Below are positions 37,960 through 63,502 of a stretch of DNA of 64,000 nucleotides, piece after piece (position 1 is the first letter of the stretch; each line of letters starts with the position of its first letter). The stretch is from a virus. Its lineage: Duplodnaviria > Caudoviricetes. Location of the stretch: the IMG/VR virus record IMGVR_UViG_3300029288_000005, positions 1 through 64,000 of that record, one strand, 5' to 3'. The notes under the pieces are model-generated. The model was not told where the DNA came from. It worked only from the letters and a program-made list of their open reading frames with translations, and did no database searches. The translations under genes and the position numbers were made by a program.

Positions 37960-38505
37960 ATGAAAAAACAAACACTTATCACTGTACTAAAAGAAACAGC
38001 AGAAACTTTGAGGGGAATTAAGTTTAATCCTTACCACGACTCAGAAGGCAGGTTCTCTACTGGAGGCTCAGGTGGTCCTAAACTTGCTCCTGATACAGGT
38101 GGTGGTACAGGTGGAGGGGGTAAGTTGGGTGGATCCCCGGGAGATAAGGAGAGCTACAATGACAGAATTGAGGGTACACAGAAAGAAGCAGATAGGGAAG
38201 TAAAGAGGGCGGAAAAAGTAGTGGCTACAGTGAAAGCTGCTTTGAGCAAGTTAGAAGCAAAAACATCTAAAAAACAGGTTGCTACACTAAAGGCAAAGCA
38301 CGAAGAATGTGTTAGTAAAATATCAGAATTGAAGAAACAAAAAGAAGCAACTATGAAGCGGATAGAAGCGTTAAAAGCACAGTTAAAGAAATCAGTTCAG
38401 AAAGAACTAAATAAAGAAATACTCACACTGAAGGACATAATCAATAAGTTCAGAGTTGTTACGAAAGAACTCTATACATTGATGGACGAGGTATCAAAAC
38501 TATGA
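37960..38505 (+). CDS. leader-cassette protein 1: conserved leader + coiled-coil payload
   Basis: MKKQTLITVLKETAETLRGIKFNPYHDSEGRF...GGG then Lys-rich coiled coil. Confidence 0.8.
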   Translation: MKKQTLITVLKETAETLRGIKFNPYHDSEGRFSTGGSGGPKLAPDTGGGTGGGGKLGGSPGDKESYNDRIEGTQKEADREVKRAEKVVATVKAALSKLEAKTSKKQVATLKAKHEECVSKISELKKQKEATMKRIEALKAQLKKSVQKELNKEILTLKDIINKFRVVTKELYTLMDEVSKL

Positions 38506-39299: not shown

Positions 39300-40002
39300 A
39301 ATAAGATTTGGTATTGTTTTGACGTATAAGTGCAACATGGCTTGCAAGGGCTGTAATAGGTTCTTGGATGTAAGGCCATGGGAAGACTCTGATATTACGT
39401 TGGATGGATTGGTTGAGGGATATAATAGGGTACAGGCAACTGGATTGGTTATCCACAAGTGCCGGGTCTCGGGAGGGGAGCCTCTGCTACATCCCAGATT
39501 TGTTGATTGCATGACTATTATACAATCAATGTGGAACCAGAACTATGGTGGGCGTACTTGTGTATTTACAAATGGAAAACTCAACAGACCAGAGCCAGCG
39601 GGATGGCGTTACAATGTGTCAACCAGTGATGGGAAAAGTTACTACTTCCACCCTCCTATGATATCGCCGTATGATCTTGGTATGGAACCACTACAAGGTA
39701 TGACAATAGCTTGTAGAAGGCAGTTGGGGTGTGGGAGATTGTTTGATGCCTTTGGTTTCTCTTTCTGCGTGTTTGCTGGAGCCATTGGTAGATTGTTGGG
39801 AGTAGATCCTTACAGTCCCACACCAGTTGTAGAAGGCATATACGATATCTGTAAGCACTGCGTTTTCTCTCAGGGAATTAAGAAGGCGTTTGTGCTGTTT
39901 GATGCAGCAAACAATGGGGAAATAGAGTATCCCACAAAGTCTTACCAGTCGGCACTGGAGAAAAAGCAAAATTTTCAGTTAAAGAGGTTTTTTGAAAGAT
40001 GA
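39289..40002 (+). CDS. radical SAM protein
   Basis: CNMACKGC, SGGEPLLHP, FTNG, C-terminal Cys cluster. Confidence 0.85.
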   Translation: MPVEIRFGIVLTYKCNMACKGCNRFLDVRPWEDSDITLDGLVEGYNRVQATGLVIHKCRVSGGEPLLHPRFVDCMTIIQSMWNQNYGGRTCVFTNGKLNRPEPAGWRYNVSTSDGKSYYFHPPMISPYDLGMEPLQGMTIACRRQLGCGRLFDAFGFSFCVFAGAIGRLLGVDPYSPTPVVEGIYDICKHCVFSQGIKKAFVLFDAANNGEIEYPTKSYQSALEKKQNFQLKRFFER

Positions 40003-40822
40003 AAAAACAAACACTCATTACTGTACTCAAAGAAACAGCAGAAACTTTAAGAGGAATAAAGTTTAATCCTTACCATGACTCCCTAGGACGTTTTGGAACT
40101 GGTGGAGGTGGTCCTAAGTTGGCTCCTGATACAGGAGGAGGTACTGGAGGTACACGTTCAAATATAGTTGAATTGGAGCAAAAACAAATATCAGATGAAC
40201 TTGAAGATCAAACTGATGAATGGGAGGAAATGCTTTTTGAAGATGCAAGAAAGGCCAATTTGAAACATGGTGTTCCTACTATGGCGGAATCGATAAATAA
40301 ATGGGTGGGTATAGTAGAGCTTTTAGAAAACATATAGCCGAAGAGAATTTTGACGACGAAATAGGGGAGGAGGCAAAGCTATTTATGAAAGCCCTGAAGT
40401 TGGCCCCTGACTATAAAGGTGAGGTGTATAGAGGATTGAAAGCTGATTCTAACCAAGCAAACACTATATTGAAAGCCATAAAGTCTAAAGCTGAGTATTG
40501 GCAGGAGAAAGCTCCTATGTCTTGCTCTTTGGATCCTGAAATTGCAATAAAGTTTGCTGGTGCTCGCAAGGATAAACCGTCTGAGTATGAAGTTCTGCTC
40601 AAAATCAAAACTAAATCAGGCAAGTACCTGGGTTCTTTGAATGAAGGGGGGGAGGAAGAAATCATCGCTATGCCCAAAAAGTACAAAATCAAATCCGCGC
40701 TTAGGCAACAGGAGGCCAATATACATGTTAGATCGGTTTATGGGGACGAAGAGGGAATTGAAAAACCTATTTTGAAGACAAAAGTAACTTTTGATTACAT
40801 TATTGAACTGGAGGAAGTCTAA
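39999..40822 (+). CDS. leader-cassette protein 2: conserved leader + ADP-ribosyltransferase, split by a -1 frameshift at ~40303-40309
   Basis: ORF 39999..40337 carries the leader; ORF 40301..40822 has YRGL, SCS, EEE (R-S-E); one extra G joins them (INKWGGYSRAFRK). Confidence 0.72.
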
Positions 40823-44167: not shown

Positions 44168-45385
44168 ATGAAAAAACAAACACTTATCACTGTACTCAAA
44201 GAAACAGCAGAAACTTTGAGGGGAATAAAGTTCAACCCTTACCACGACTCAGAAGGTAGATTCTCTACAGGCTCGGGATCTGGTGCCCACATGGCTCCTG
44301 ATACAGGAGGAGGCACTGGTGGTGGAAGTAAGTTGGAAGAAAGAAAATTCTCTGATGAACATGTTAATAAACTTGCAAAAGCATGGAAGAATCTGAGCAA
44401 GAAAAAGTCAGAGGCTGAATTGGCTAAGTTGGGGGAGGCTGATAGATTAGAGTTAGCAAAAAAAATCTCATGGGATTTTCATAGGTACAAACCAGAAAGA
44501 AAAGAAGAGGTGTGGAAAACTCTAGGTGATTTAGAAAAGAGTGAGATTATAAAAACACAATCTGCTTTTTGGAATGATCTTAGTGATGCAAAAAAATCAG
44601 AGCTACTGGGTGTAATGAACAATAAAGAAAAAGAGGAGTTGATAAGTGGTGGAAAGCGTGTTAAAGAGGAGATGGAGAAGTTTAATCAAAAGATTCAAAA
44701 TAAGGTGGATGTAATACATTCTCAGGAAGCACAACGAATTAAAGAATCAGAAGATAAATTGATGCCTAGTAAATCAGATTTACTAGATAGACAGAAGGCG
44801 AGGGTTCGAATAGATCCTGAAGAAGGCAGTTTTGATACGTTGGCGGTTTTGCAGAAAAGAAATTACACTAAGAATGTTAGTGATGCTGCTAAAAGTGGAT
44901 TTACTGAATATTCAAGGAGTGAACAAAGTAGAAAAATAAATGGTGCTCTGCGAAAGGGAAAATCTGTAGAAGAAATAAGTCCTGAGATTGCAGAGTTGCA
45001 AAAAGCATGTAAATCCCCACTAGAATCACCCATGATTGTTTATCGAGGAATTGATTCTAAGTTTGCGAGTGAAAATTTTAAGAAAAACACTGTGTATGAA
45101 GCCAAAGGATTTGTCTCAACATCAATGAATCTGGGACAAGCTGTTCGATTTGGAATGGAAGGACTAGCTAAAGAACCTGTAGGAAGCCAAAAAGCTGTTG
45201 CAGTCATGGAAATAAAAGCAAAGAGTGGGTTTTTGGCTGCTCCGGGAGCAGGTGTGCACTCTGGGGAATATGAGGTTTTACAGGCACATAATACACAATA
45301 CAAGTTAATAGGCATTGATAATAGTGTTCCTTTACACAGGGGAAGCAGTGAAAATTTAGTAGTTTATATGTTCGAGGAGGTATAA
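44168..45385 (+). CDS. leader-cassette protein 3: conserved leader + VIP2/Alt-like ADP-ribosyltransferase
   Basis: Leader; then Y.....INGALR, VYRG, GFVSTS, EYEVL. Confidence 0.88.
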   Translation: MKKQTLITVLKETAETLRGIKFNPYHDSEGRFSTGSGSGAHMAPDTGGGTGGGSKLEERKFSDEHVNKLAKAWKNLSKKKSEAELAKLGEADRLELAKKISWDFHRYKPERKEEVWKTLGDLEKSEIIKTQSAFWNDLSDAKKSELLGVMNNKEKEELISGGKRVKEEMEKFNQKIQNKVDVIHSQEAQRIKESEDKLMPSKSDLLDRQKARVRIDPEEGSFDTLAVLQKRNYTKNVSDAAKSGFTEYSRSEQSRKINGALRKGKSVEEISPEIAELQKACKSPLESPMIVYRGIDSKFASENFKKNTVYEAKGFVSTSMNLGQAVRFGMEGLAKEPVGSQKAVAVMEIKAKSGFLAAPGAGVHSGEYEVLQAHNTQYKLIGIDNSVPLHRGSSENLVVYMFEEV

Positions 45386-45387
45386 AG

Positions 45388-45525
45388 ATGAAAAAAGACG
45401 AGAAAAAACCAGAGAATAACGAAGACAGGAAAGTGCGAGCAGAGAGGTTCTACGAAGACGAACCTGATGCGTTTGTTATAGTGAAGCCAAAGAAACAAGA
45501 TGACAAGCAAAGAAACAAAAAGTAA
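45388..45525 (+). CDS. 45-aa protein, candidate immunity protein for the upstream ART
   Basis: Manual: MKKDEKKPENNEDRKVRAERFYEDEPDAFVIVKPKKQDDKQRNKK*; GAGGAGG RBS. Confidence 0.6.
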   Translation: MKKDEKKPENNEDRKVRAERFYEDEPDAFVIVKPKKQDDKQRNKK

Positions 45526-46537
45526 AATAGTTTCTACGTTAGTTGAAACTACTACTCTAGCATTGAAACTAAAGACCAACCTCCTGCAAAAACAGATACG
45601 CAGGAAGGTTACAGATAAGGTTCACAAGTTACAGGTTGCTAAGGTGGAGAACAAGCTAGCGAAAGCCCTAGAACCAGTGTTCAAACAAGAGCTGCTAAAG
45701 TCTGCTGATAGGTTACGGGAGATTGTACCACAAGAGAAAGCAAAAGCCAATCCCGTAGCAGAAGCCATAACAGCACAGGTTCTGTCCCATGACCAGGAAT
45801 TGAAGAATAAGGTAGTCGATGCTGCTGTTCCCATTCTGGCAGTAGAGATGCTAAAGTCCATGAAGATGGTATTTGTGGAGAATGGTAGAAAAGACATCAG
45901 AAACATCCAACAGAAGTTCAACCCCCATCATGACTCTCTAGGTCGTTTTGCTACTGGTTCAGGCTCAGGCGCCCACATGGCTCCTGATACCGGCGGTGGT
46001 ACGGGTGGAGGTTCCCTCTTGGTAGGATCCAGTCAAAGAAACAAAGACGAGCTGTATAAGGAATATCGGGAAGTTTATAAAGAGAAAAAGGGAACAGATC
46101 CTAAAAATAATGAAAATTTGGTAAAAATTGCAGGTGTGAAAATAGTTTGTCCTGGGAATATAAAAAGCACCGCAGAAAGAATGTTGGCCCATGTTATTGC
46201 AGACAGCAAAACTTTGATGGATGGGTTATCGGGAGTGACTGTAACTGTAAAAAACATGGGCCAGCTTTATGGCCAGAGCAAGGGAAACAATCTTTTTGTA
46301 GATGAGAAGGTGGTAAAGGAAAAGGGAGCTGGATTTGGAGCTTCAATTGTAAGGCATGAATTGGAGCATACTTTTCTTACAAGAAAAAAGGTACCATCAG
46401 GAAAACAAGAGCCCAGAGTACGTGCAGTAACAGGCATGTTTGCTGTTGCAAAGTATAGTAGTATGGCAAAAACAAATCCTGCTGATGCAGAAGGGTTTTT
46501 GGCAGCAGCAAAAGCTTCTGGAGTTAAGATAAGATGA
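45500..46537 (+). CDS. helical (MuF N-terminal-like) domain + internal FNPHHD motif + HExxH metallopeptidase-like payload (cassette 4)
   Basis: QK-FNPHHDSLGRF..APDTGGGTGGG at aa ~139-172; IVRHELEH. Confidence 0.72.
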   Translation: MTSKETKSKIVSTLVETTTLALKLKTNLLQKQIRRKVTDKVHKLQVAKVENKLAKALEPVFKQELLKSADRLREIVPQEKAKANPVAEAITAQVLSHDQELKNKVVDAAVPILAVEMLKSMKMVFVENGRKDIRNIQQKFNPHHDSLGRFATGSGSGAHMAPDTGGGTGGGSLLVGSSQRNKDELYKEYREVYKEKKGTDPKNNENLVKIAGVKIVCPGNIKSTAERMLAHVIADSKTLMDGLSGVTVTVKNMGQLYGQSKGNNLFVDEKVVKEKGAGFGASIVRHELEHTFLTRKKVPSGKQEPRVRAVTGMFAVAKYSSMAKTNPADAEGFLAAAKASGVKIR

Positions 46538-47388
46538 GTTATAGTTGGCCTTGTTTATTTGCAGATCTTGATAAAGATTCCATCGAGTTACCAAATGGAT
46601 GGAAGCCATTGAAACCGCTTGATAAAGAGGGCGGTTCTATGTATACAAGAGCAGAAGAAAATGAAAAACAAACACTACTAAAAGCACTCAAAGAAACAGC
46701 TGAAACTCTGAGAACTATCAAGTTCAATCCTTACCACGATTCTTTAGGTAGATTCGCTACAGGTGGGTCGGGAGGAGCTGGTAGGAACTTACAACTATCT
46801 CGTGATATATTGGAGCAAACACAGAAGGATCTTAGGGAACGGAGTTTTCTAGTAGATCGAGATGGAAAAGTTGTATCTGATGTTAGTATTGGGGAAAAAG
46901 AAGAGAACGTACTAGAGTCAGGGGTGGATAGACCATATACAGAGAGTAACAATACCGAGGGGGCGGACTTAAATCTGATACATACACATCCCATTCATAC
47001 TGATGAAGAAAACCCATATACGGGATTGGGTGTGGGGGATGTTCTGAGTCTCAAGAATTCTCCTGGTATAAACAGCATTACAGCCATTGATTTAGATGGT
47101 CGTGTTCATTCCATAACAAGGGCCAGTGATGATAAGGAGTTTTTGAAAAAGTACTGGCTTAGATCGGGGGAAATTGAATCGGATCTGCGGTCTAAGATAA
47201 TCGACGAATTTATTGAGAACAAGATAACAAAAGAAGAAGCCAATAGAAAGAAACGACTAATACCCAAAGATTTGATAAAGCAGCTTCTTAAAGAGGGTTT
47301 GTTATCAAAGGAAGAGGAATGGGATTTGTTGGATGGGAATAAATCTTACAGTCTGAAGTTTAATAACAGTGGAACAGTAAATGCCTAG
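46534..47388 (+). CDS. short N-terminal peptide fused to leader-cassette protein 5 with JAB/MPN-like payload
   Basis: EKQTLLKALKETAETLRTIKFNPYHDSLGRF; payload RERS...IHTHP......GD. Confidence 0.68.
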   Translation: MSYSWPCLFADLDKDSIELPNGWKPLKPLDKEGGSMYTRAEENEKQTLLKALKETAETLRTIKFNPYHDSLGRFATGGSGGAGRNLQLSRDILEQTQKDLRERSFLVDRDGKVVSDVSIGEKEENVLESGVDRPYTESNNTEGADLNLIHTHPIHTDEENPYTGLGVGDVLSLKNSPGINSITAIDLDGRVHSITRASDDKEFLKKYWLRSGEIESDLRSKIIDEFIENKITKEEANRKKRLIPKDLIKQLLKEGLLSKEEEWDLLDGNKSYSLKFNNSGTVNA

Positions 47389-48997
47389 TACAGCATCCGA
47401 GTGGTTGGCAAGTAACCCGAACCAAGTGGCAGAACTACGAGAAGTTCTGATTGCCAATGGTGTCTCTGTTGACTTTTTGACTGAGTATCCCGACTGGATG
47501 TTGGAAAACATAGCACAGCAGTTGACAGACACTTTCTCCCAAAGCTACTGGGACGACATCGAGAAGAGTTATGGAAACGACGTGAACGAGTTACTAAGAG
47601 CTGGTATTCGTAATGGAAAGTCAATGGGTGACATCGCTCAAGAGATGACCGACCTCAGCGACGAGTATGCAGAGTCCCGGGCCATGAACATAGCCCGTAC
47701 GGAATCAGGCCATGCACTGAACGGTGCCAGAAAAGCCTCTATGGATGAGATAGTAAATGATCCACAGCTAGTGGGCACATTACGGCCTACGTGGCAATCG
47801 GCCCTAGGAACCACCACCAGGGATTCGCACGCAATACTGGACGGTGTACCGGCTGATAAAGAGGGAATGTGGACACTGTCAGGCTACAAGATTCCATGGC
47901 CTGCTCATTATAGTCTTCCACCAGGTGAGCGTTGCAACTGTCAGTGCACCATAGTCATAGAGTATGGGTTGCAGGACCTAGAAGCTCGGGATATGATAGA
48001 GCAATACAATCAGCGAGTGGAAGAATATAATAAGGATGTAAGGTTAAGGGAGAAATTCAATCCTTACCACGACTCTCTAGGTAGATTTTCTACTGGTTCA
48101 GGCTCTGGTGCTCATATGGCCCCAGACACTGGTGGGGGTACTGGTGGAGGTTCGTCAGATGGTGGAAAGATGCAAGAGGTGACATATGATAAGGACAGCA
48201 AGAAATGGTTATTAGGTAATGGAAAAGAACTACCTGACAACGTGCCCAGAATACCTCCCGCATGGACTGGTGTACGGGTAAACACCAGCAAGAATGCGGA
48301 TCTGGTAGTAGTGGGTGTGGATGCCAAGGGAAGAAAACAGAGCATATACAGTGAAGCACATTGGACTAAGGCTGCGGAGGTTAAGTTTGCAAGGGTTAAT
48401 GAGTTGCGGTCCAAAGTCAAGAACATCGAAAAAGAAATCAAAGGGGACTTAAAAGTTCCTGAGCGTAAGGAACAAGCAGCCTGCTTGAGGTTGGTTCTGG
48501 AAACAGGTATTAGACCAGGCAGTGACTCAGATACGGGAGCCGCTAAAAAAGCATACGGGGCCACTACATTAGAAGGCAGACATGTAAAGGTGGTCAATGG
48601 TGAAGTTAGACTGCAGTTTGTTGGTAAGAAGGGTGTTGACATTGATATACCCGTAACAAACAAGGCGCTGGTGGCAGACCTGTTAAAGCGAAAGAAGAAG
48701 AGTGGTGATAGTGGTAAGTTATTTAACACAAGCAATAGAAAGCTGCTCCAATATACACACACTAAAGATGGTGGCTCTTTCAAAACAAAGGACTTCCGCA
48801 CTGCCAAAGCCACAACCATGGCCATTAAGTTGGTTAGTTCCATGTCCAAACCCAAAAACCCGAAAGAGTACAAAAAGTCGGTGAAAGAAGTAGCCACGGT
48901 TGTGTCACAGTCGTTGGGTAACACACCCACCATTGCACTACAATCGTACATACACTCAGCAGTGTTTACCAAGTGGCGTGCCTCAGCAGGAGTATAG
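47381..48997 (+). CDS. MuF (SPP1 gp7-like) head morphogenesis domain + FNPYHD motif + DNA topoisomerase IB (cassette 6)
   Basis: RA.NIARTE, W......R.SH..LDG, P....P..RCNCQC; then IPPAW, D.KGR.Q..Y, GIRPG, YGATTL, F.GKKG, KDFRT, LGNTP.IA..SYI. Confidence 0.9.
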   Translation: MPSTASEWLASNPNQVAELREVLIANGVSVDFLTEYPDWMLENIAQQLTDTFSQSYWDDIEKSYGNDVNELLRAGIRNGKSMGDIAQEMTDLSDEYAESRAMNIARTESGHALNGARKASMDEIVNDPQLVGTLRPTWQSALGTTTRDSHAILDGVPADKEGMWTLSGYKIPWPAHYSLPPGERCNCQCTIVIEYGLQDLEARDMIEQYNQRVEEYNKDVRLREKFNPYHDSLGRFSTGSGSGAHMAPDTGGGTGGGSSDGGKMQEVTYDKDSKKWLLGNGKELPDNVPRIPPAWTGVRVNTSKNADLVVVGVDAKGRKQSIYSEAHWTKAAEVKFARVNELRSKVKNIEKEIKGDLKVPERKEQAACLRLVLETGIRPGSDSDTGAAKKAYGATTLEGRHVKVVNGEVRLQFVGKKGVDIDIPVTNKALVADLLKRKKKSGDSGKLFNTSNRKLLQYTHTKDGGSFKTKDFRTAKATTMAIKLVSSMSKPKNPKEYKKSVKEVATVVSQSLGNTPTIALQSYIHSAVFTKWRASAGV

Positions 48998-55436: not shown

Positions 55437-55480
55437 AAGCTGCGATGGATAGATTTTCAGTCCATGGCAGCTTTTTTATT
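55437..55480 (+). terminator. terminator-like hairpin upstream of the late structural block
   Basis: AAGCTGCGATGGA...TCCATGGCAGCTT plus T-run. Confidence 0.6.
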
Positions 55481-55491
55481 TGGAGAAACAA

Positions 55492-56220
55492 ATGTCAAAA
55501 AACGTTACGTTTGGTTTAGGCATCGCAGTGGGATTGGCGACAAGACAGTTGACCATTACCCGCATGATGAAAGCGGGGGATGATACTGTTCCTACTGCAA
55601 CACACGATGCTGATGCCGGAGCAACATCGACTAGTGTGGTTGTGAATCTGGCAGACAATACCATATGGCAAGCAAAGCTGGTGGATACCAAGTCCACTGG
55701 TGAGGTATCAACACCCGACTACCTAAACTTCCATACTGGTTCGTTACAGTTTCCTGGTCCGTGTTCTGGGGACCGCTTGTGTATACTATCCATGGAGGAT
55801 CTGTCAAGCAGCAGCTCCAGTAGTAGCTCCAGTGTTTCTAGCGCTTCCAGTGTTTCTAGCAGTAGCTCCAGTGCCTCCAGTGTTTCGAGTGGATCCAGTA
55901 GCAGTACCAGTAGTGCTAGTTCTTCTAGTTCTTCTAGCAGTTCCACTTCTTCCTCGCTCAGCTCCAGCAGTGCTTCAAGTACTAGCTCTAGCAGTGTATC
56001 GAGTGTTAGTAGTGCATCCAGCATTTCCACTAGCACCTCGTCTACTAGTTCTGTTAGTAGTATTTCTACCAGCAGTAGCAGCCAAAGCAGTGTCAGCAGT
56101 TCCAGTTGGAGCAGTTTGTCAACATCTACTTCCAGTCAATCTGTTAGTAGTGTTAGTTCGATATCTACCAGCAGTGAGAGCAGTAGCCACAGCAGTTCCA
56201 GTGCGTCGTCACCTTGGTAA
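55492..56220 (+). CDS. beta-sandwich protein with ~135-aa poly-Ser/Thr tail
   Basis: GGAG RBS; mixed AGY/TCN codons in the Ser tract. Confidence 0.75.
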   Translation: MSKNVTFGLGIAVGLATRQLTITRMMKAGDDTVPTATHDADAGATSTSVVVNLADNTIWQAKLVDTKSTGEVSTPDYLNFHTGSLQFPGPCSGDRLCILSMEDLSSSSSSSSSSVSSASSVSSSSSSASSVSSGSSSSTSSASSSSSSSSSTSSSLSSSSASSTSSSSVSSVSSASSISTSTSSTSSVSSISTSSSSQSSVSSSSWSSLSTSTSSQSVSSVSSISTSSESSSHSSSSASSPW

Positions 56221-56807: not shown

Positions 56808-58643
56808 GTGCCAATACCCAAGCCCAATACTGGTGAGAAGAAAGACGATTTTATAGCTCGTTGTATGTCGAACAGTATAATGAACGAAGATTATCCTGAC
56901 AACAAACAACGAGCAGCAGTTTGTTATACCCAGTGGAAGGAGAAGTCGGTTAGCATGGACAACAATTGGCTGTTAAGTCAGATCCGAAACCGGAAAGAAA
57001 AGCTCACTAGTTTTGGTCGAGGAATTACAACAGCAGACGCTTACGTAAAGACCCTTGCTGACGTGGCTGGTTTGGATGTTTGCTATAAGAGGCTCTCAAC
57101 CAGAACTGTGAGTTTTGATGACATACTTCAGAAAGCAGCTAAAACTCTGGTATACTCCAACGACCAGATGGATTTGGAAGCTAAAGCAGATTCTACTTAC
57201 AAATACAAGGATCTGCTCAAAGGTCTCAAAGACGTAAAAATACCGAAAAACACCCTCATACTCTTTCGTCACAAGTTGACAACTTCTATAGAGGATCGGG
57301 ACAAAGACATTCTTCACTCCGAAGGCATGGAACTCGACCCGAAAATGCTCCTCCTCTGGCAACACGTACACACCATGCCTATCGGTAAGTACGTACACAC
57401 TGTTTCACAGGACGACAAGAGTGTGAGGGTTATTTCTGCTATTGTGGATATAAACGAGACATCCCATGATGCGGCTGTGATGATCGACAGTGGAATGGGG
57501 CGTTTCAGTCATGGTTTCAAAGCCACTGAGTTCCAAAAACGAAAGTCTCACAGTGGTAAGGAAACTGGTGGCTTTGAGATCCACCGTGCTGAGATCATGG
57601 AGGAGTCGTTGGTTTCCGTTCCTGCAAACCCGGGTGCTGAAACTGAGGAAATCATTCTCTCACTGGTTGAAGGGGGTAAGTTAACTTCTCCTGTAATGAA
57701 GTCAGTGGGTAGATCCATTCGAGAAAAACGACCTCTGCAGATGCAAGGCATTACCTATAGAGAAACAGTGGGGGATTCCACAAAAGAGCTCACATGCCAG
57801 TCTTTTGAGGATTTGAAGAAGCTGGCCGACCATGGTGTAATTGGTACTAAAAAGGAGAAAGAAGATGAGAACTTGTCAGGAACTGAACAAGATGAGGAAG
57901 GAAGAGAAGGCGCCGCATCAGAAGAAACCAATGACGATGCAGACAAAGCAGCAAATAACAAAACGAAAAACACCAGTGACTCACAAGTAGAGTCAGACAA
58001 GAGTGCAAAGATCACAACAAAAAACATGCCTGAAGTTTCTAGCAAAGCCTATATTGACTTGCCCAATAGCTATGAAGTAGTAACCTCTTGTTTGTCCAAG
58101 TTAATCAATGAGAAGTTTGGTCAAAGTGCTTGGTTAATTGCTACTTTTACTGGTCGTGCTGTATTTGAAGACTTCAGAGCTGGTCAGAAGAAGTATTACA
58201 GTATCGAGTGGGAGAATGTTGATGGGAAGATCAAACTCAAGGAAGTGGAGAAAGAAGTTGAGCTAAAAGTTGATGTCGTACAGAAATCAATGAAATTGTT
58301 CAATACACTCAACTCGCAAAAACAAGGAAGAACACTATCCCGAGCAAATGAAACCAAAATACAGGACGCTAGAGATGATATAAAAGAAGCTTCCAAGATG
58401 GAAGGTCTTAGTAGAAGTTGTTTGGCCTTGTTAAGCAAGGCGTTTAACAGTCTGGGACAGGTGCTCAAGTCACTGGGATCAGAGCCGGAACCCGAAAAGG
58501 AAATTACTATCGAGGAAGCAAAGGTTGTTTTCTTGAAGAATTCAACAGTAGAAGACAGGCAGCAAATGGAAACCCTCCTAAGTGCTATGTCAACTGTGGA
58601 CAGACGAGCGGAAACCACAAAGTGGTTCAAGTCTCTAAAATGA
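56808..58643 (+). CDS. prohead maturation protease (HK97 family) with scaffold-like extension
   Basis: MP.PKP..GE...DFIARCM N-domain; DRD.D, LLWQH....PIG, FS.GF, E.SLVSVPANP; K.GR.LS.AN. Confidence 0.9.
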   Translation: MPIPKPNTGEKKDDFIARCMSNSIMNEDYPDNKQRAAVCYTQWKEKSVSMDNNWLLSQIRNRKEKLTSFGRGITTADAYVKTLADVAGLDVCYKRLSTRTVSFDDILQKAAKTLVYSNDQMDLEAKADSTYKYKDLLKGLKDVKIPKNTLILFRHKLTTSIEDRDKDILHSEGMELDPKMLLLWQHVHTMPIGKYVHTVSQDDKSVRVISAIVDINETSHDAAVMIDSGMGRFSHGFKATEFQKRKSHSGKETGGFEIHRAEIMEESLVSVPANPGAETEEIILSLVEGGKLTSPVMKSVGRSIREKRPLQMQGITYRETVGDSTKELTCQSFEDLKKLADHGVIGTKKEKEDENLSGTEQDEEGREGAASEETNDDADKAANNKTKNTSDSQVESDKSAKITTKNMPEVSSKAYIDLPNSYEVVTSCLSKLINEKFGQSAWLIATFTGRAVFEDFRAGQKKYYSIEWENVDGKIKLKEVEKEVELKVDVVQKSMKLFNTLNSQKQGRTLSRANETKIQDARDDIKEASKMEGLSRSCLALLSKAFNSLGQVLKSLGSEPEPEKEITIEEAKVVFLKNSTVEDRQQMETLLSAMSTVDRRAETTKWFKSLK

Positions 58644-58664
58644 ACTGTGAAAGGAACATTTACT

Positions 58665-60305
58665 ATGTTAATCACAAAGAAACTCAAGAAGTGGGCACAA
58701 GCCAACTTGGATGTTGCCGCTGACGCTGAAGATACTGTTATCAAAGCGGCCATTAGCAAAGCACTTGTCGAAGGTGAGCTTACTGCCAACAAGTATGTCG
58801 AACTCACAAAGAGTGAGGAAGACGAAGAGGTTGAAGGCATTGCCAAGCAGTTTGGTCGCCTAGCAGACAACCTGGAGAAGGCCATCGAGGCGATTTCGAA
58901 GGAAGAGGGTACTGGGGAAACCAAAGAAACCAAGAAAGAAACCAAGGAAGAGCCTCTTCAAACCAAAGAAACCAAGACTGAAACAAAGGAAACCAAAAAG
59001 GAAACCAAGGAAACCAAAGTACTTTCCAAAATGGCGAAGATGATGGTTGAGTTGGGCGGTGTTTCCGAGGTCAATGAGGAAGAAAAGGCTATTGACATTC
59101 GTGTCAAGGAAGCAGTCGAATCCTATGACCGAACTCGAAAATCCCTCACTTATCCGCAGTTCACCAAAAACATGAAGCCCCATGTCCTTGCTGGTCAGGT
59201 TGTGGAGAATCTTGGGCGCCCGATGAACGGGCCCAGTGCTTGCGATAAGGCACTGGCAGGAGTTTGGGCTAAGTTCCAGCTCTTGTCTGTCACACCTCGA
59301 TTGGCAGGATCTCCTATTCGTGCGTGGGAACGCTTGTCCGAACACGAGAAATCCCTCTTGGCCCACTTGGCTGAGAAAGAAGATTGGGATGACTCGGTTG
59401 GTGGAAAGACAAAGACCTGCCAAGGTTATCCTGGAGGTATCAAAGCCCTCATCGACGATGCCACCAGTGGTGGAACAGAAGCGGCTCCTATCGTGTTTGA
59501 CGATCAGGTGATCCAAGCCCCGTTGCTCAACGGTGAGTTGTACCCCTTGGTTACCGTCAAACCCTTGGATCGCGGTCGTCGGGTTGAAGGTGTGGCTACC
59601 GGAACGGTAACTAGCAGTTGGGGTGGTGTTGATGACACCGCTATCAGCCTGTTTGATACTACTTCCTACATTACTGCTTTCGACACCACGATCTTCAGGT
59701 GGGAAGGTTCGATTCGCCTCGGACTGGATTTCCTCAGTGACACACCGATTGACTTCGGTGCTCATATCACTGCCCAGTACGGTGAGAGATTGCTGGAAGA
59801 TCTGGATGATGTTATTGCTACAGGCAATGGCACCACCCAACCCGAAGGCATAATGAACAAGACAGGTGCCACTAGCGTTGCTTGGGGCGGCGCTACCAGC
59901 ATAGGTAATTATGAATCACTGAGATTCGGTGTTGCCAAAGCCGAGCACGGAGCTGCCGTCAAGTCTTCAGCAGTCTTCTGTGGTAACGAAACTTCCTATG
60001 CGAGGGCAAGAGCTTTGGCAGTGGGAACCACCGATGCTCGTAGACTGTTTGGTATGGACTATGACTCTTATTCTCTTATGGAACGACCCTATAAGATCAA
60101 TGAGAGCATGGATAATACCTATGCGTTCTACGCAATCATGGCCCGCTACCGCATGTATCGTCGTAAGGGACTTACCGTTCGAACCAGCACCGAAGGCGAT
60201 ACACTTATGCGTCGTAATGAGATGCTCATTATCGCCATGGCTCGTTATGGTGGTCAAATGGAACGGGGTGCCTGTGTTGCTTATACAACCTCAGCACCGG
60301 CCTAA
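58665..60305 (+). CDS. major capsid protein (HK97 fold) with long N-terminal delta domain
   Basis: KALIDDATSGG..AP, D..I..G.GT.QPEGI, R.GG; follows the protease. Confidence 0.9.
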   Translation: MLITKKLKKWAQANLDVAADAEDTVIKAAISKALVEGELTANKYVELTKSEEDEEVEGIAKQFGRLADNLEKAIEAISKEEGTGETKETKKETKEEPLQTKETKTETKETKKETKETKVLSKMAKMMVELGGVSEVNEEEKAIDIRVKEAVESYDRTRKSLTYPQFTKNMKPHVLAGQVVENLGRPMNGPSACDKALAGVWAKFQLLSVTPRLAGSPIRAWERLSEHEKSLLAHLAEKEDWDDSVGGKTKTCQGYPGGIKALIDDATSGGTEAAPIVFDDQVIQAPLLNGELYPLVTVKPLDRGRRVEGVATGTVTSSWGGVDDTAISLFDTTSYITAFDTTIFRWEGSIRLGLDFLSDTPIDFGAHITAQYGERLLEDLDDVIATGNGTTQPEGIMNKTGATSVAWGGATSIGNYESLRFGVAKAEHGAAVKSSAVFCGNETSYARARALAVGTTDARRLFGMDYDSYSLMERPYKINESMDNTYAFYAIMARYRMYRRKGLTVRTSTEGDTLMRRNEMLIIAMARYGGQMERGACVAYTTSAPA

Positions 60306-61979: not shown

Positions 61980-62594
61980 ATGAATATGAAACAAACACTT
62001 ATCACTGTCCTCAAAGAAACAGCAGAAACTTTGAGGGGAATAAAGTTCAACCCTTACCACGACTCCTCTGGTAGATTCTCTACAGGAGGCTCGGGTGGTC
62101 CTAAGTTAGCACCCGATACAGGGGGAGGCACTGGAGGTGGAGGAAAACCTGCAAAAAAACCACCCAAGTTGATGGATATTGATGAGGACACTGGTTTGGT
62201 GGTTAAGCCTTCCAGTTCACCTCCCAAGTTTAACGCACCAACTGAGAGGGGAAGAACCTTACAGAAAAGTAGCTACTATTCTTCTAAATCCGCTATGGAT
62301 TTAAGTTCAAAAACAAATAATAGTAGGGCGGTACAGTTATCAAACAAAGCTATGGAAGCCTCTACAAAAGCAGCTTCTTCTGGCAATAACCCCAAAATTG
62401 CCAGCAAATATCATAACAAGGCTGCTGAATTACATGAGCAAGCAGAGATGATACACGTGGAAGAGTATCCCGCAGCAAAGAATTCCAAGAAAAAACTGGC
62501 ACACGCAAAAGCTGAGTCCGCTCATAAAAAAGCGGCTGATCTACACAGACAAGCAGCAACTGCTTTGAGTAATACCATTGAGTACTTTGAATAA
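61980..62594 (+). CDS. leader-cassette protein 7: conserved leader + His-rich helical payload
   Basis: MKQTLITVLKETAETLRGIKFNPYHDSSGRF; H..AA.LH..A repeats. Confidence 0.8.
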   Translation: MNMKQTLITVLKETAETLRGIKFNPYHDSSGRFSTGGSGGPKLAPDTGGGTGGGGKPAKKPPKLMDIDEDTGLVVKPSSSPPKFNAPTERGRTLQKSSYYSSKSAMDLSSKTNNSRAVQLSNKAMEASTKAASSGNNPKIASKYHNKAAELHEQAEMIHVEEYPAAKNSKKKLAHAKAESAHKKAADLHRQAATALSNTIEYFE

Positions 62595-62608: not shown

Positions 62609-63502
62609 ATGACACGAAGCGTATCAGGACCAAAGATCAATGTCAAACTCTCAGGTACTTATCAGAATGCCCTAAATGATGCTGCCATTGTTTCAATCAC
62701 ACAGCCCACTCTAAACTATACCAAGACCTTAACGAACGGGGTTAGTGCAAGTCAGATCAATCGTATCTGGGAGAGTCGCAACAGGGTATTGGCTAATGCC
62801 ACACAAGAAATAATTGATCTCTTCCACTTTACTGGTGTTGACATAGGAGCCGGTGATGGAAAAGATGCTTTGGGACTTGATTTAGAGATAGAAGAGATAG
62901 TAGCCATTGCTATCGTAAATGAGAATCTTGTTACTGATTCTGGACAGTTGGAAATACTCCCATCTAACTCAAGGGGTTGGCAAGGAATTGGGACACACAC
63001 AGTGGCCACAGGAGGAGCTCTGCATGGGCAAGGGTGTCTATTCAAGTCAGATGTTAGTGAAGCTGGTTTTGATATTGAAGGAATCAATAGTAGAATTACA
63101 CTAAGAGCCAGTGGTGGTTCTGTAACATACTCAATTTATGTTATGGGCAGAAGTGATGATGAGGAATCCTCCTCATCCAGCAGTTCCACTTCTTCAATGA
63201 GTACATCTTCCACAAGTGGTAGCAGCTCATCGTCGTCTAGTGTATCTAGTATATCCACCAGTTCGGAAAGCTCTTCAAGTAGTAGTATATCTACCAGTAG
63301 TATATCTACTAGTAGTGCATCTACCAGCATTTCTTCTCTTAGTAGCAAGTCGTCGAAGAGTTCTTCTAGCAGTAGTTTGTCAGGCAGTAGTTTGTCTTCA
63401 AGTAGTACTAGTAGCAAGTCGTCTGCCAGTTCATTGTCGGCAAGCTCTAATAGTAGTTCGTCACAGAGCGAATCCTCCAGCAGCATTTCATTAGGTATAT
63501 GA
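62609..63502 (+). CDS. virion protein with ~105-aa poly-Ser tail
   Basis: Beta-rich N-domain, then Ser/Thr tract. Confidence 0.72.
   Translation: MTRSVSGPKINVKLSGTYQNALNDAAIVSITQPTLNYTKTLTNGVSASQINRIWESRNRVLANATQEIIDLFHFTGVDIGAGDGKDALGLDLEIEEIVAIAIVNENLVTDSGQLEILPSNSRGWQGIGTHTVATGGALHGQGCLFKSDVSEAGFDIEGINSRITLRASGGSVTYSIYVMGRSDDEESSSSSSSTSSMSTSSTSGSSSSSSSVSSISTSSESSSSSSISTSSISTSSASTSISSLSSKSSKSSSSSSLSGSSLSSSSTSSKSSASSLSASSNSSSSQSESSSSISLGI

Follow-up and report, generated by a model that had tools for sequence, protein, structure and literature searches.

The locus described here raises the question of whether a phage head protease that matures the capsid also cuts proteins packed inside it, at a copy of the same site. 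The stretch analysed, called the window below, comprises 64,000 nucleotides (nt; positions 1 to 64,000 of IMG/VR record IMGVR_UViG_3300029288_000005) and comes from an uncultured phage whose 93-kb contig ends in direct terminal repeats. Its major capsid protein (MCP) reads Gly-Ile-Lys (GIK) at the point where the HK97-fold core appears to begin, and several predicted cargo proteins carry GIK-F directly ahead of a short conserved peptide, N-P-x-H-D-x-x-G-R-F (the tag). Comparison with other tag-bearing phages favours a load-and-cut explanation, in which the tag would bring proteins into the procapsid and the S78-type head protease would release them at a mimic of the capsid site; we give this explanation as a whole a probability of roughly 0.7. 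In what follows, P1 is the residue before a predicted cut (P2 and P3 being those ahead of it) and P1' the residue after it.

Tag copies in the window

A six-frame scan of the window found seven copies of the tag core, all on the plus strand, each preceded by F and then by Lys (F codons at nt 38023, 40062, 44231, 45917, 46723, 48056 and 62046). The tripeptides ahead of F are, in order, GIK, GIK, GIK, QQK, TIK, REK and GIK. The original prediction, made from the window alone, that Lys stands directly before F in every copy, QQK and REK included, is borne out in 7/7 cases, and the two junctions on which it was built, GIK-ALIDDATSGG in the capsid protein (nt 59436-59444) and GIK-F in four leaders, read as it had stated.

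Three of the GIK copies follow a leader helix of 20 amino acids (aa): copy 1 (38014..38055, in the open reading frame (ORF) 37960..38505), copy 2 (40053..40094, ORF 39999..40337) and copy 3 (44222..44263, ORF 44168..45385), the last heading an ADP-ribosyltransferase cargo (PF03496 at aa 231-384). The fourth, copy 7 (62037..62078, ORF 61980..62594), follows the same 20-aa leader and lies downstream of the capsid gene. The remaining copies are internal: copy 4 (QQK, 45908..45949, ORF 45500..46537) stands behind a helical N-terminal domain, copy 5 (TIK, 46714..46755, ORF 46534..47388) behind a leader-like helix, and copy 6 (REK, 48047..48088, ORF 47381..48997) between a MuF domain (PF04233, aa 67-191) and a type IB topoisomerase (PF01028, aa 333-521).

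The four GIK leaders are near-identical in DNA (mean column identity 87%, with a fifth, internal copy included) and, being duplicates of one another, count as one evolutionary event. This single duplicated cassette is among the observations that would suit a pure coincidence, namely a chance match of capsid GIK and leader GIK with no shared function; so are the roughly 30 occurrences of GIK in the six-frame translation of the window, and the tags of relatives (GLK, DLK, LRK, FVK and others), set against capsid sites reading GIK, GVK or EQK. However, an exact tripeptide match at the capsid site defined by the HK97 register (±1 residue) has a chance of about 1e-3 by amino-acid composition, and exact identity at that site is found in three independent lineages (GIK in the window, ELR in record G030 and EKK in record G089), with EVR near the site in record G120. 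Together with the covariation of P1 described below (p ≤ 0.004), this makes a chance match very unlikely in our judgement.

The predicted maturation site of the capsid protein

The MCP is encoded by 58647..60305 (plus strand, 552 aa) and matches PF05065 at aa 281-540 (E 1.9e-19). Upstream of this match lies an N-terminal scaffolding (delta-like) region of 266 residues (58647..59444), predicted to be removed, which ends in G264-I265-K266. The predicted maturation site GIK/A occupies 59436..59447, and the predicted mature HK97-fold protein (aa 267-552, 286 aa) together with the stop codon occupies 59445..60305; the junction reads YPGGIK266/A267LIDDATSGG.

The HK97 protease had been said to cut its capsid protein after Lys, in agreement with the published cut of HK97 gp5 at K103/S104 (PMC10275583). 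Three independent lines of evidence concur that K266/A267 is the homologue of this cut. First, in the Pfam register, HK97 residue 113 sits at profile position 2 and MCP residue 281 at position 6, which places HK97 S104 within one residue of MCP A267. Second, K266 falls opposite HK97 K103 when the two junction regions are aligned locally (score 29, shuffle p about 0.04); both lysines are followed by a similar segment rich in small residues and Asp, with a Pro 15 residues past the Lys. Third, an AlphaFold model of MCP aa 255-552 (111 homologues; pLDDT 80, pTM 0.74) matches the mature HK97, RcGTA, D3 and T5 capsids in Foldseek and VIA-align, with Z of about 17-22. Mature HK97 (1ohg_A residues 105-383) aligns with model residues 15-298 (Z 19.8, root-mean-square deviation 4.0, 271 residues aligned) and mature T5 (8zvi_G residues 164-455) with model residues 16-295 (Z 17.2), so that the first ordered residues of these mature capsids map to MCP 269-270, just past the proposed cut.

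Among 120 MCP homologues the Lys before ALIDD is nearly invariant (at least 90% in one alignment) and the GI of GIK is variable, one subfamily reading G-(I/L/V/M/Y/F/W)-K and another EQK. No capsid match came from PDB sequence searches, whether the query was the MCP by itself or a 38-sequence profile. The AlphaFold model of the full-length MCP has a poor core (pLDDT below 50 at aa 272-406), its confidence collapsing past about residue 270, and a confident domain at aa 153-270. The model gives this domain an alpha/beta fold (pLDDT 80-90), whereas the delta domain of HK97 is a coiled coil; the scaffolding region that contains it is unusually long and has a Lys/Glu/Thr-rich repeat at about aa 88-125.

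The head protease

Directly upstream of the MCP gene, 56808..58643 (plus strand) encodes a 611-aa protein in which a protease is fused to a scaffold-like C-terminal region. Its identification as the prohead protease is upheld by an S78 domain at aa 179-280 (nt 57342-57647; PF04586 Peptidase_S78, 31.5 bits against a cut-off of 21 bits, E 2.3e-7; 33.7 bits in the genome search), and the motifs of the catalytic region are kept in four relatives. The locus thus combines an S78 protease beside the capsid gene, an HK97-fold MCP with an N-terminal scaffolding region, and a basic P1 at the position equivalent to K103, as in HK97-type (S78) maturation.

The record sequence of the T5 capsid protein pb8 reads HLK159/A160, and we take the cut to fall exactly after residue 159, partly on the strength of that sequence. 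The length of the pb8 delta domain, about 160 residues (PMC10713586), is in line with this assumption. The capsid protein (CP) of phi12 is cut at R128/L129 and Ccm at K87/Q88, the shared feature being a positively charged P1, Lys or Arg (PMC8569155). A cut after Lys in front of the tag matches the loose specificity of these related proteases, for which a basic P1 is needed and little else.

The C-terminal part of the protease (window 58370-58640) contains a block conserved in five relatives, which opens on K-x-G-R-x-L-S and runs on into an amphipathic segment; this block could be what anchors the protease in the procapsid. A second conserved site was looked for in the scaffold-like region of the protease, with nothing decisive found. 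Two further ORFs of the structural region (window 55480-56220 and 62609-63502) have long stretches rich in Ser at their ends.

Presence of an S78-clan protease and the basic residue ahead of the tag

Other tags were retrieved from IMG/VR with two degenerate DNA patterns. These covered the core and themselves fixed its residues N, P, H and D, but left the preceding residues free. The patterns gave at least 119 and at least 116 stretches, and at least 200 stretches of viral contigs overall carry the tag. For 65 long tag-bearing viral records, the head protease was typed and the residue at -2 to the tag Asn was recorded; the search picked up the divergent S78 domain of the window family at 23-34 bits, which points to a reasonable sensitivity.

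In the 34 of the 65 records with PF04586 or PF14550, the residue before the tag is Lys in 63 and Arg in 3 of 66 distinct copies. In the records having neither domain, Lys is found in 13/41 copies, the rest being L, F, G, N, M and others, and N, V and L occupy this position in the three records whose protease is of the Mu type. The association between a basic residue and the protease is significant overall (Fisher p 1e-7), for records at least 90% complete (p 3e-5) and after collapse to 53 DNA-dissimilar clusters (p 3e-6). These counts indicate a tag core that is independent of the protease and a preceding basic residue that goes with it. The position after the predicted cut differs as well: F or Y is present in 56/66 copies from the protease-bearing phages and in 13/41 elsewhere, where Gly is commonest. 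Head proteases of the ClpP and S49 types were found in none of the credible tag-bearing records. A search of 32 tag-bearing records for S77 (PF03420) gave no match, but its control was silent too, so that absence of S77 is not evidenced.

These data bear on a simpler explanation, in which Lys is one residue of a longer tag (aliphatic, x, K, F/Y, NPxHD..GRF) with a head component as its binding partner. The cargo would then never be cut, and its likeness to the capsid site would be incidental. Docking alone would account for the conservation of the core over 10 residues, far beyond the need of a protease site, for the Lys of those 13/41 copies in which no S78-clan protease is detectable, and for the pattern upstream of Lys, which includes an aliphatic residue at -4 in 55/66 copies. 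It does not explain why Lys is lost in many protease-less and Mu-protease lineages that keep the core, nor the behaviour of Arg and His described next, and we judge it unlikely.

Predicted capsid and cargo junctions change together

The comparison of tags with capsid sites was limited to the tag-bearing records with a PF05065 capsid protein. Their capsid junctions were predicted from the HK97 register with a freedom of ±1 residue or, equivalently, by taking as P1 the residue 15 positions before the conserved Pro of the N-arm. The S78 protease is present in all the records compared except G075 and G125, which have weak capsid hits.

Arg at the capsid junction is accompanied by Arg at the tag in G030 (MCP ELR/A; tags ELR-F and ECR-F), in G106 and G145 (ELR/A; EVR-Y), in G017 (EQR/D; ESR-A) and in G013 (EYR/D; EAR-F). 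Lys tags are also carried by all of nine records with Lys at the junction. Lys pairs read EKK/S and EKK-F in G089, ETK/A and ELK in G024, EQK/A and EPK in G129, EEK/A and GLK in G126 and G134, EQK/A and LFK in G153, and GVK/Q and RQK in G119. His occurs in G093, where the capsid junction reads EKH/A and the tags EQH, ERH, EQH and QRH, along with three tags preceded by L or F. That four of the seven G093 tags (loci L253 and L132) and the capsid junction (MCP locus L280) carry His hints at a head protease cutting after His.

The match at P1 is significant under permutation of lineage labels (p 1.5e-4 with 13 lineages and 0.004 with 8 merged lineages). In an exact test on 9 lineages, p was 0.002 at P1 and 0.056 at P3, and P2 showed no signal. 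The correspondence between capsid and cargo is therefore carried by P1 and weakly by P3. Since it recurs across lineages, the GIK match of the window is, as far as sequences can tell, one instance of a general mimicry of the capsid site by cargo tags. Docking alone would leave unexplained why the residue before the tag becomes Arg or His in just those lineages whose capsid junction does.

Close relatives of the capsid family of the window set a limit to the tripeptide. The MCP site is GIK in G004 (tags GLK and DLK) and in L002 (tags GLK, FVK, VTK, DEK and FEK), and GVK in L026 (tags CVK, QEK and IEK); a word-index search with the leader returned close relatives only. GIK is consequently a lineage-specific identity, and what the whole family has in common is Lys. 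The idea of GIK as the shared site thus stands for the window, and as a basic P1, and falls for the exact tripeptide, which is not conserved in relatives. Covariation of P2 and P3 inside this MCP family was considered and rejected on the evidence of two complete genomes, G001 and G003, described below.

The same data speak to the identity of the enzyme. Release by a host protease or by a peptidase of the cargo, instead of the S78 head protease, has a precedent in Prp, a host protease acting for Staphylococcus phage 80alpha. A host protease was also raised as a possibility for Ccm (PMC8569155). The basic residue, however, is tied to the phage S78-clan protease across the 65 records and follows the phage's own capsid site, and a different enzyme is in our opinion hardly probable. 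The original prediction that one protease cuts both the capsid protein and the K/F junction of the cargo is supported by the coupling to the protease and by the covariation of P1, and we regard S78 cleavage before the tag as probable.

Several observations weigh against the load-and-cut explanation. In the window, three tags (QQK, REK and TIK) differ from capsid GIK. Among the relatives, the complete genome G001 has the capsid site EQK with tags LRK and GLK, a mismatch at P2 and P3, and the complete genome G003 has GIK in its MCP and carries no tags, so that the capsid site is independent of cargo. In G120 the register site is non-basic, EVR lies 10 residues upstream of it and the tag is also EVR, the sole mismatch of register; and G093 has a clear S78 protease, yet 3/7 of its tags follow L or F. 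The deep phylogenetic non-independence of the lineages is only partly controlled, and the S78_2 phages, having no PF05065 capsid protein, fall outside the covariation comparison. About a third of the tags carry Lys where an S78-clan protease is undetected (the 13/41 copies above); Lys may also serve the tag itself in these genomes, or some proteases may have been missed. Finally, P1' is aromatic in the tags and small in the capsid sites. As the capsid sites have a small P1', the aromatic residue is not needed for cutting, and in the tags it may be relevant as a new N-terminus.

Distribution and variants of the tag

The tag is widespread among phages that are unrelated to one another. Four settings of it were found: after short N-terminal leaders, directly behind the Cys-rich end of MuF domains, behind an S78_2 protease domain in the same ORF, and in tandem within large proteins. 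Many XkdF-type (PF14550) phages encode the protease domain together with a Nudix domain, the tag and another payload in a single ORF (e.g. L110:4354-6207, minus strand).

The N-P-x-H of the tag resembles the NPTH loop at which FlhB/YscU-type proteins cleave themselves, and reovirus mu1 cleaves itself at Asn-Pro. Both suggest another route of release, in which the tag would split between Asn and Pro and the payload would start at Pro with no protease involved. N, P, H and D are indeed invariant in all the copies retrieved, though the retrieval patterns fixed these residues. But natural variants in L110 read N-H-N-H-D or N-H-N-H-G instead of N-P-x-H-D and so replace Pro by His, the motif looks like a short linear peptide beside Gly-rich linkers more than like a strained loop in a fold, and the covariation of Lys, Arg and His would be left unexplained; self-cleavage is extremely unlikely on these grounds.

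One tag subfamily, N-P-W-H-D-E-(I/V)-G-R-F-A-P-K-G-T-G, is preceded by residues of the F, A or M type and not by Lys (L102, L115, L122, L141, L153 and L155; records G025, G034 and others). It occurs in up to eight copies per phage of 100-150 kb, and S78, ClpP, S49 and Mu-type proteases were undetected in these phages. In the Nitrososphaera provirus Pro-Nvie1 (FR725450; L272:5500-5841), a Mu-type portal protein ends in the tag, preceded by Q-E-F; an ORF with a RelA/SpoT domain follows the portal gene, and the annotated protease/capsid fusion matches no Pfam protease family.

A search of cultured phages by tblastn returned nothing for a tag query of 32 aa; with a query of 47 aa the matches were confined to Pro-Nvie1, the archaeal provirus, and to spurious ones in Vibrio. 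The head region of Faecalibacterium phage FP_Brigit has no tag, and no cultured model with the tag was found in the phage collection searched. Literature searches with the motif strings NPYHD, NPNHD, NPHHD, HDxxGRF and NPxHD gave nothing relevant.

Proposed mechanism and its consequences

In the load-and-cut explanation, the core NPxHD..GRF very probably docks the cargo inside the procapsid, and the three residues ahead of the tag would imitate the phage's own capsid maturation site. After assembly of the procapsid, the S78 protease would remove the 266-residue scaffolding region by cutting after K266, and the same enzyme would cut each cargo after the equivalent Lys. Payloads, including the ADP-ribosyltransferase and the type IB topoisomerase, would in this way come free of their leader helix or MuF carrier, each keeping the tag, with the N-terminus F-N-P-x-H-D.

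N-terminal Phe and Tyr are N-degrons for ClpS/ClpAP in bacteria. This leads to a speculative extension, which we think rather unlikely, in which the tag and the site mimic form a portable load-and-release module, shared by very many phages and able to load any enzyme, with residues tuned to each head protease, and the cut exposes N-terminal Phe or Tyr as a timer that destroys the injected enzymes soon after they have acted in the new host.

If the load-and-cut explanation is true, virion-packaged, injected enzymes of uncultured phages could be spotted by a simple rule, a tag with the capsid site copied in front of it, and the genome alone would reveal whether a head protease prefers Lys, Arg or His at P1. 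The module might also be used to load proteins of choice into phage capsids.

Comparison with known systems

The capsid side of the system is regular HK97-type maturation, a kind already known. With HK97 gp5/gp4, T5 pb8/pb11 and the phi12 CP and SaPIbov5 Ccm, the window shares an S78-type protease, an HK97-fold capsid protein that begins with a scaffolding domain, and a basic P1 where the N-arm starts; the sites are homologous within one residue. It differs from them in the 266-residue length of the scaffolding region with its confidently modelled domain, and in the predicted cargo substrates that mimic the site, none of which are described in the papers cited for these phages (PMC10275583, PMC10713586, PMC8569155).

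The MuF polymorphic toxins of temperate phages (PMC5576092) and the phage polyvalent proteins (PMC5512222) resemble ORF 47381..48997 in joining a MuF head domain to a variable enzymatic C-terminus, here a type IB topoisomerase, with presumed delivery along with the DNA. In text searches, neither Jamet 2017 (PMC5576092) nor Iyer 2017 (PMC5512222) was found to mention the tag, a linker motif, a cleavage site, processing by a head protease or a release mechanism. Unlike in those families, the same tag here also heads free-standing cargo genes.

Head proteases of the phiKZ-like phages cut after Glu. In SPN3US and phiKZ the head protease trims many packaged ejection proteins at a motif common to the capsid protein (PMC10052503, PMC7411985). 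The protease lineage and the motif are different from those of the window, and the NPxHD..GRF tag is not described there.

The closest parallel in function is the capsid targeting sequence (CTS) of T4, which is carried by the internal proteins IPI-III and Alt and removed by the prohead protease gp21 (Mullaney and Black 1996; reviewed in PMC9026906 and PMC3012670). As in T4, unrelated cargo bears one short signal (seven copies on different payloads in the window), the signal is joined to a predicted site of the capsid type at which the head protease would cut, and an ADP-ribosyltransferase is among the cargo. The differences are that the protease of the window is S78 and not S77 of the gp21 type, that the predicted cut follows a basic residue instead of Glu, that the cut falls ahead of the conserved tag, which the cargo would therefore retain, and that the signal is also found internally, behind MuF or protease domains. 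The system of the window consequently works like the T4 CTS and is not a member of that family. What is new here is a predicted load-and-cut arrangement of the T4 CTS kind in HK97-type phages, which would extend the T4 principle to the far larger world of these phages and to effectors fused to MuF.

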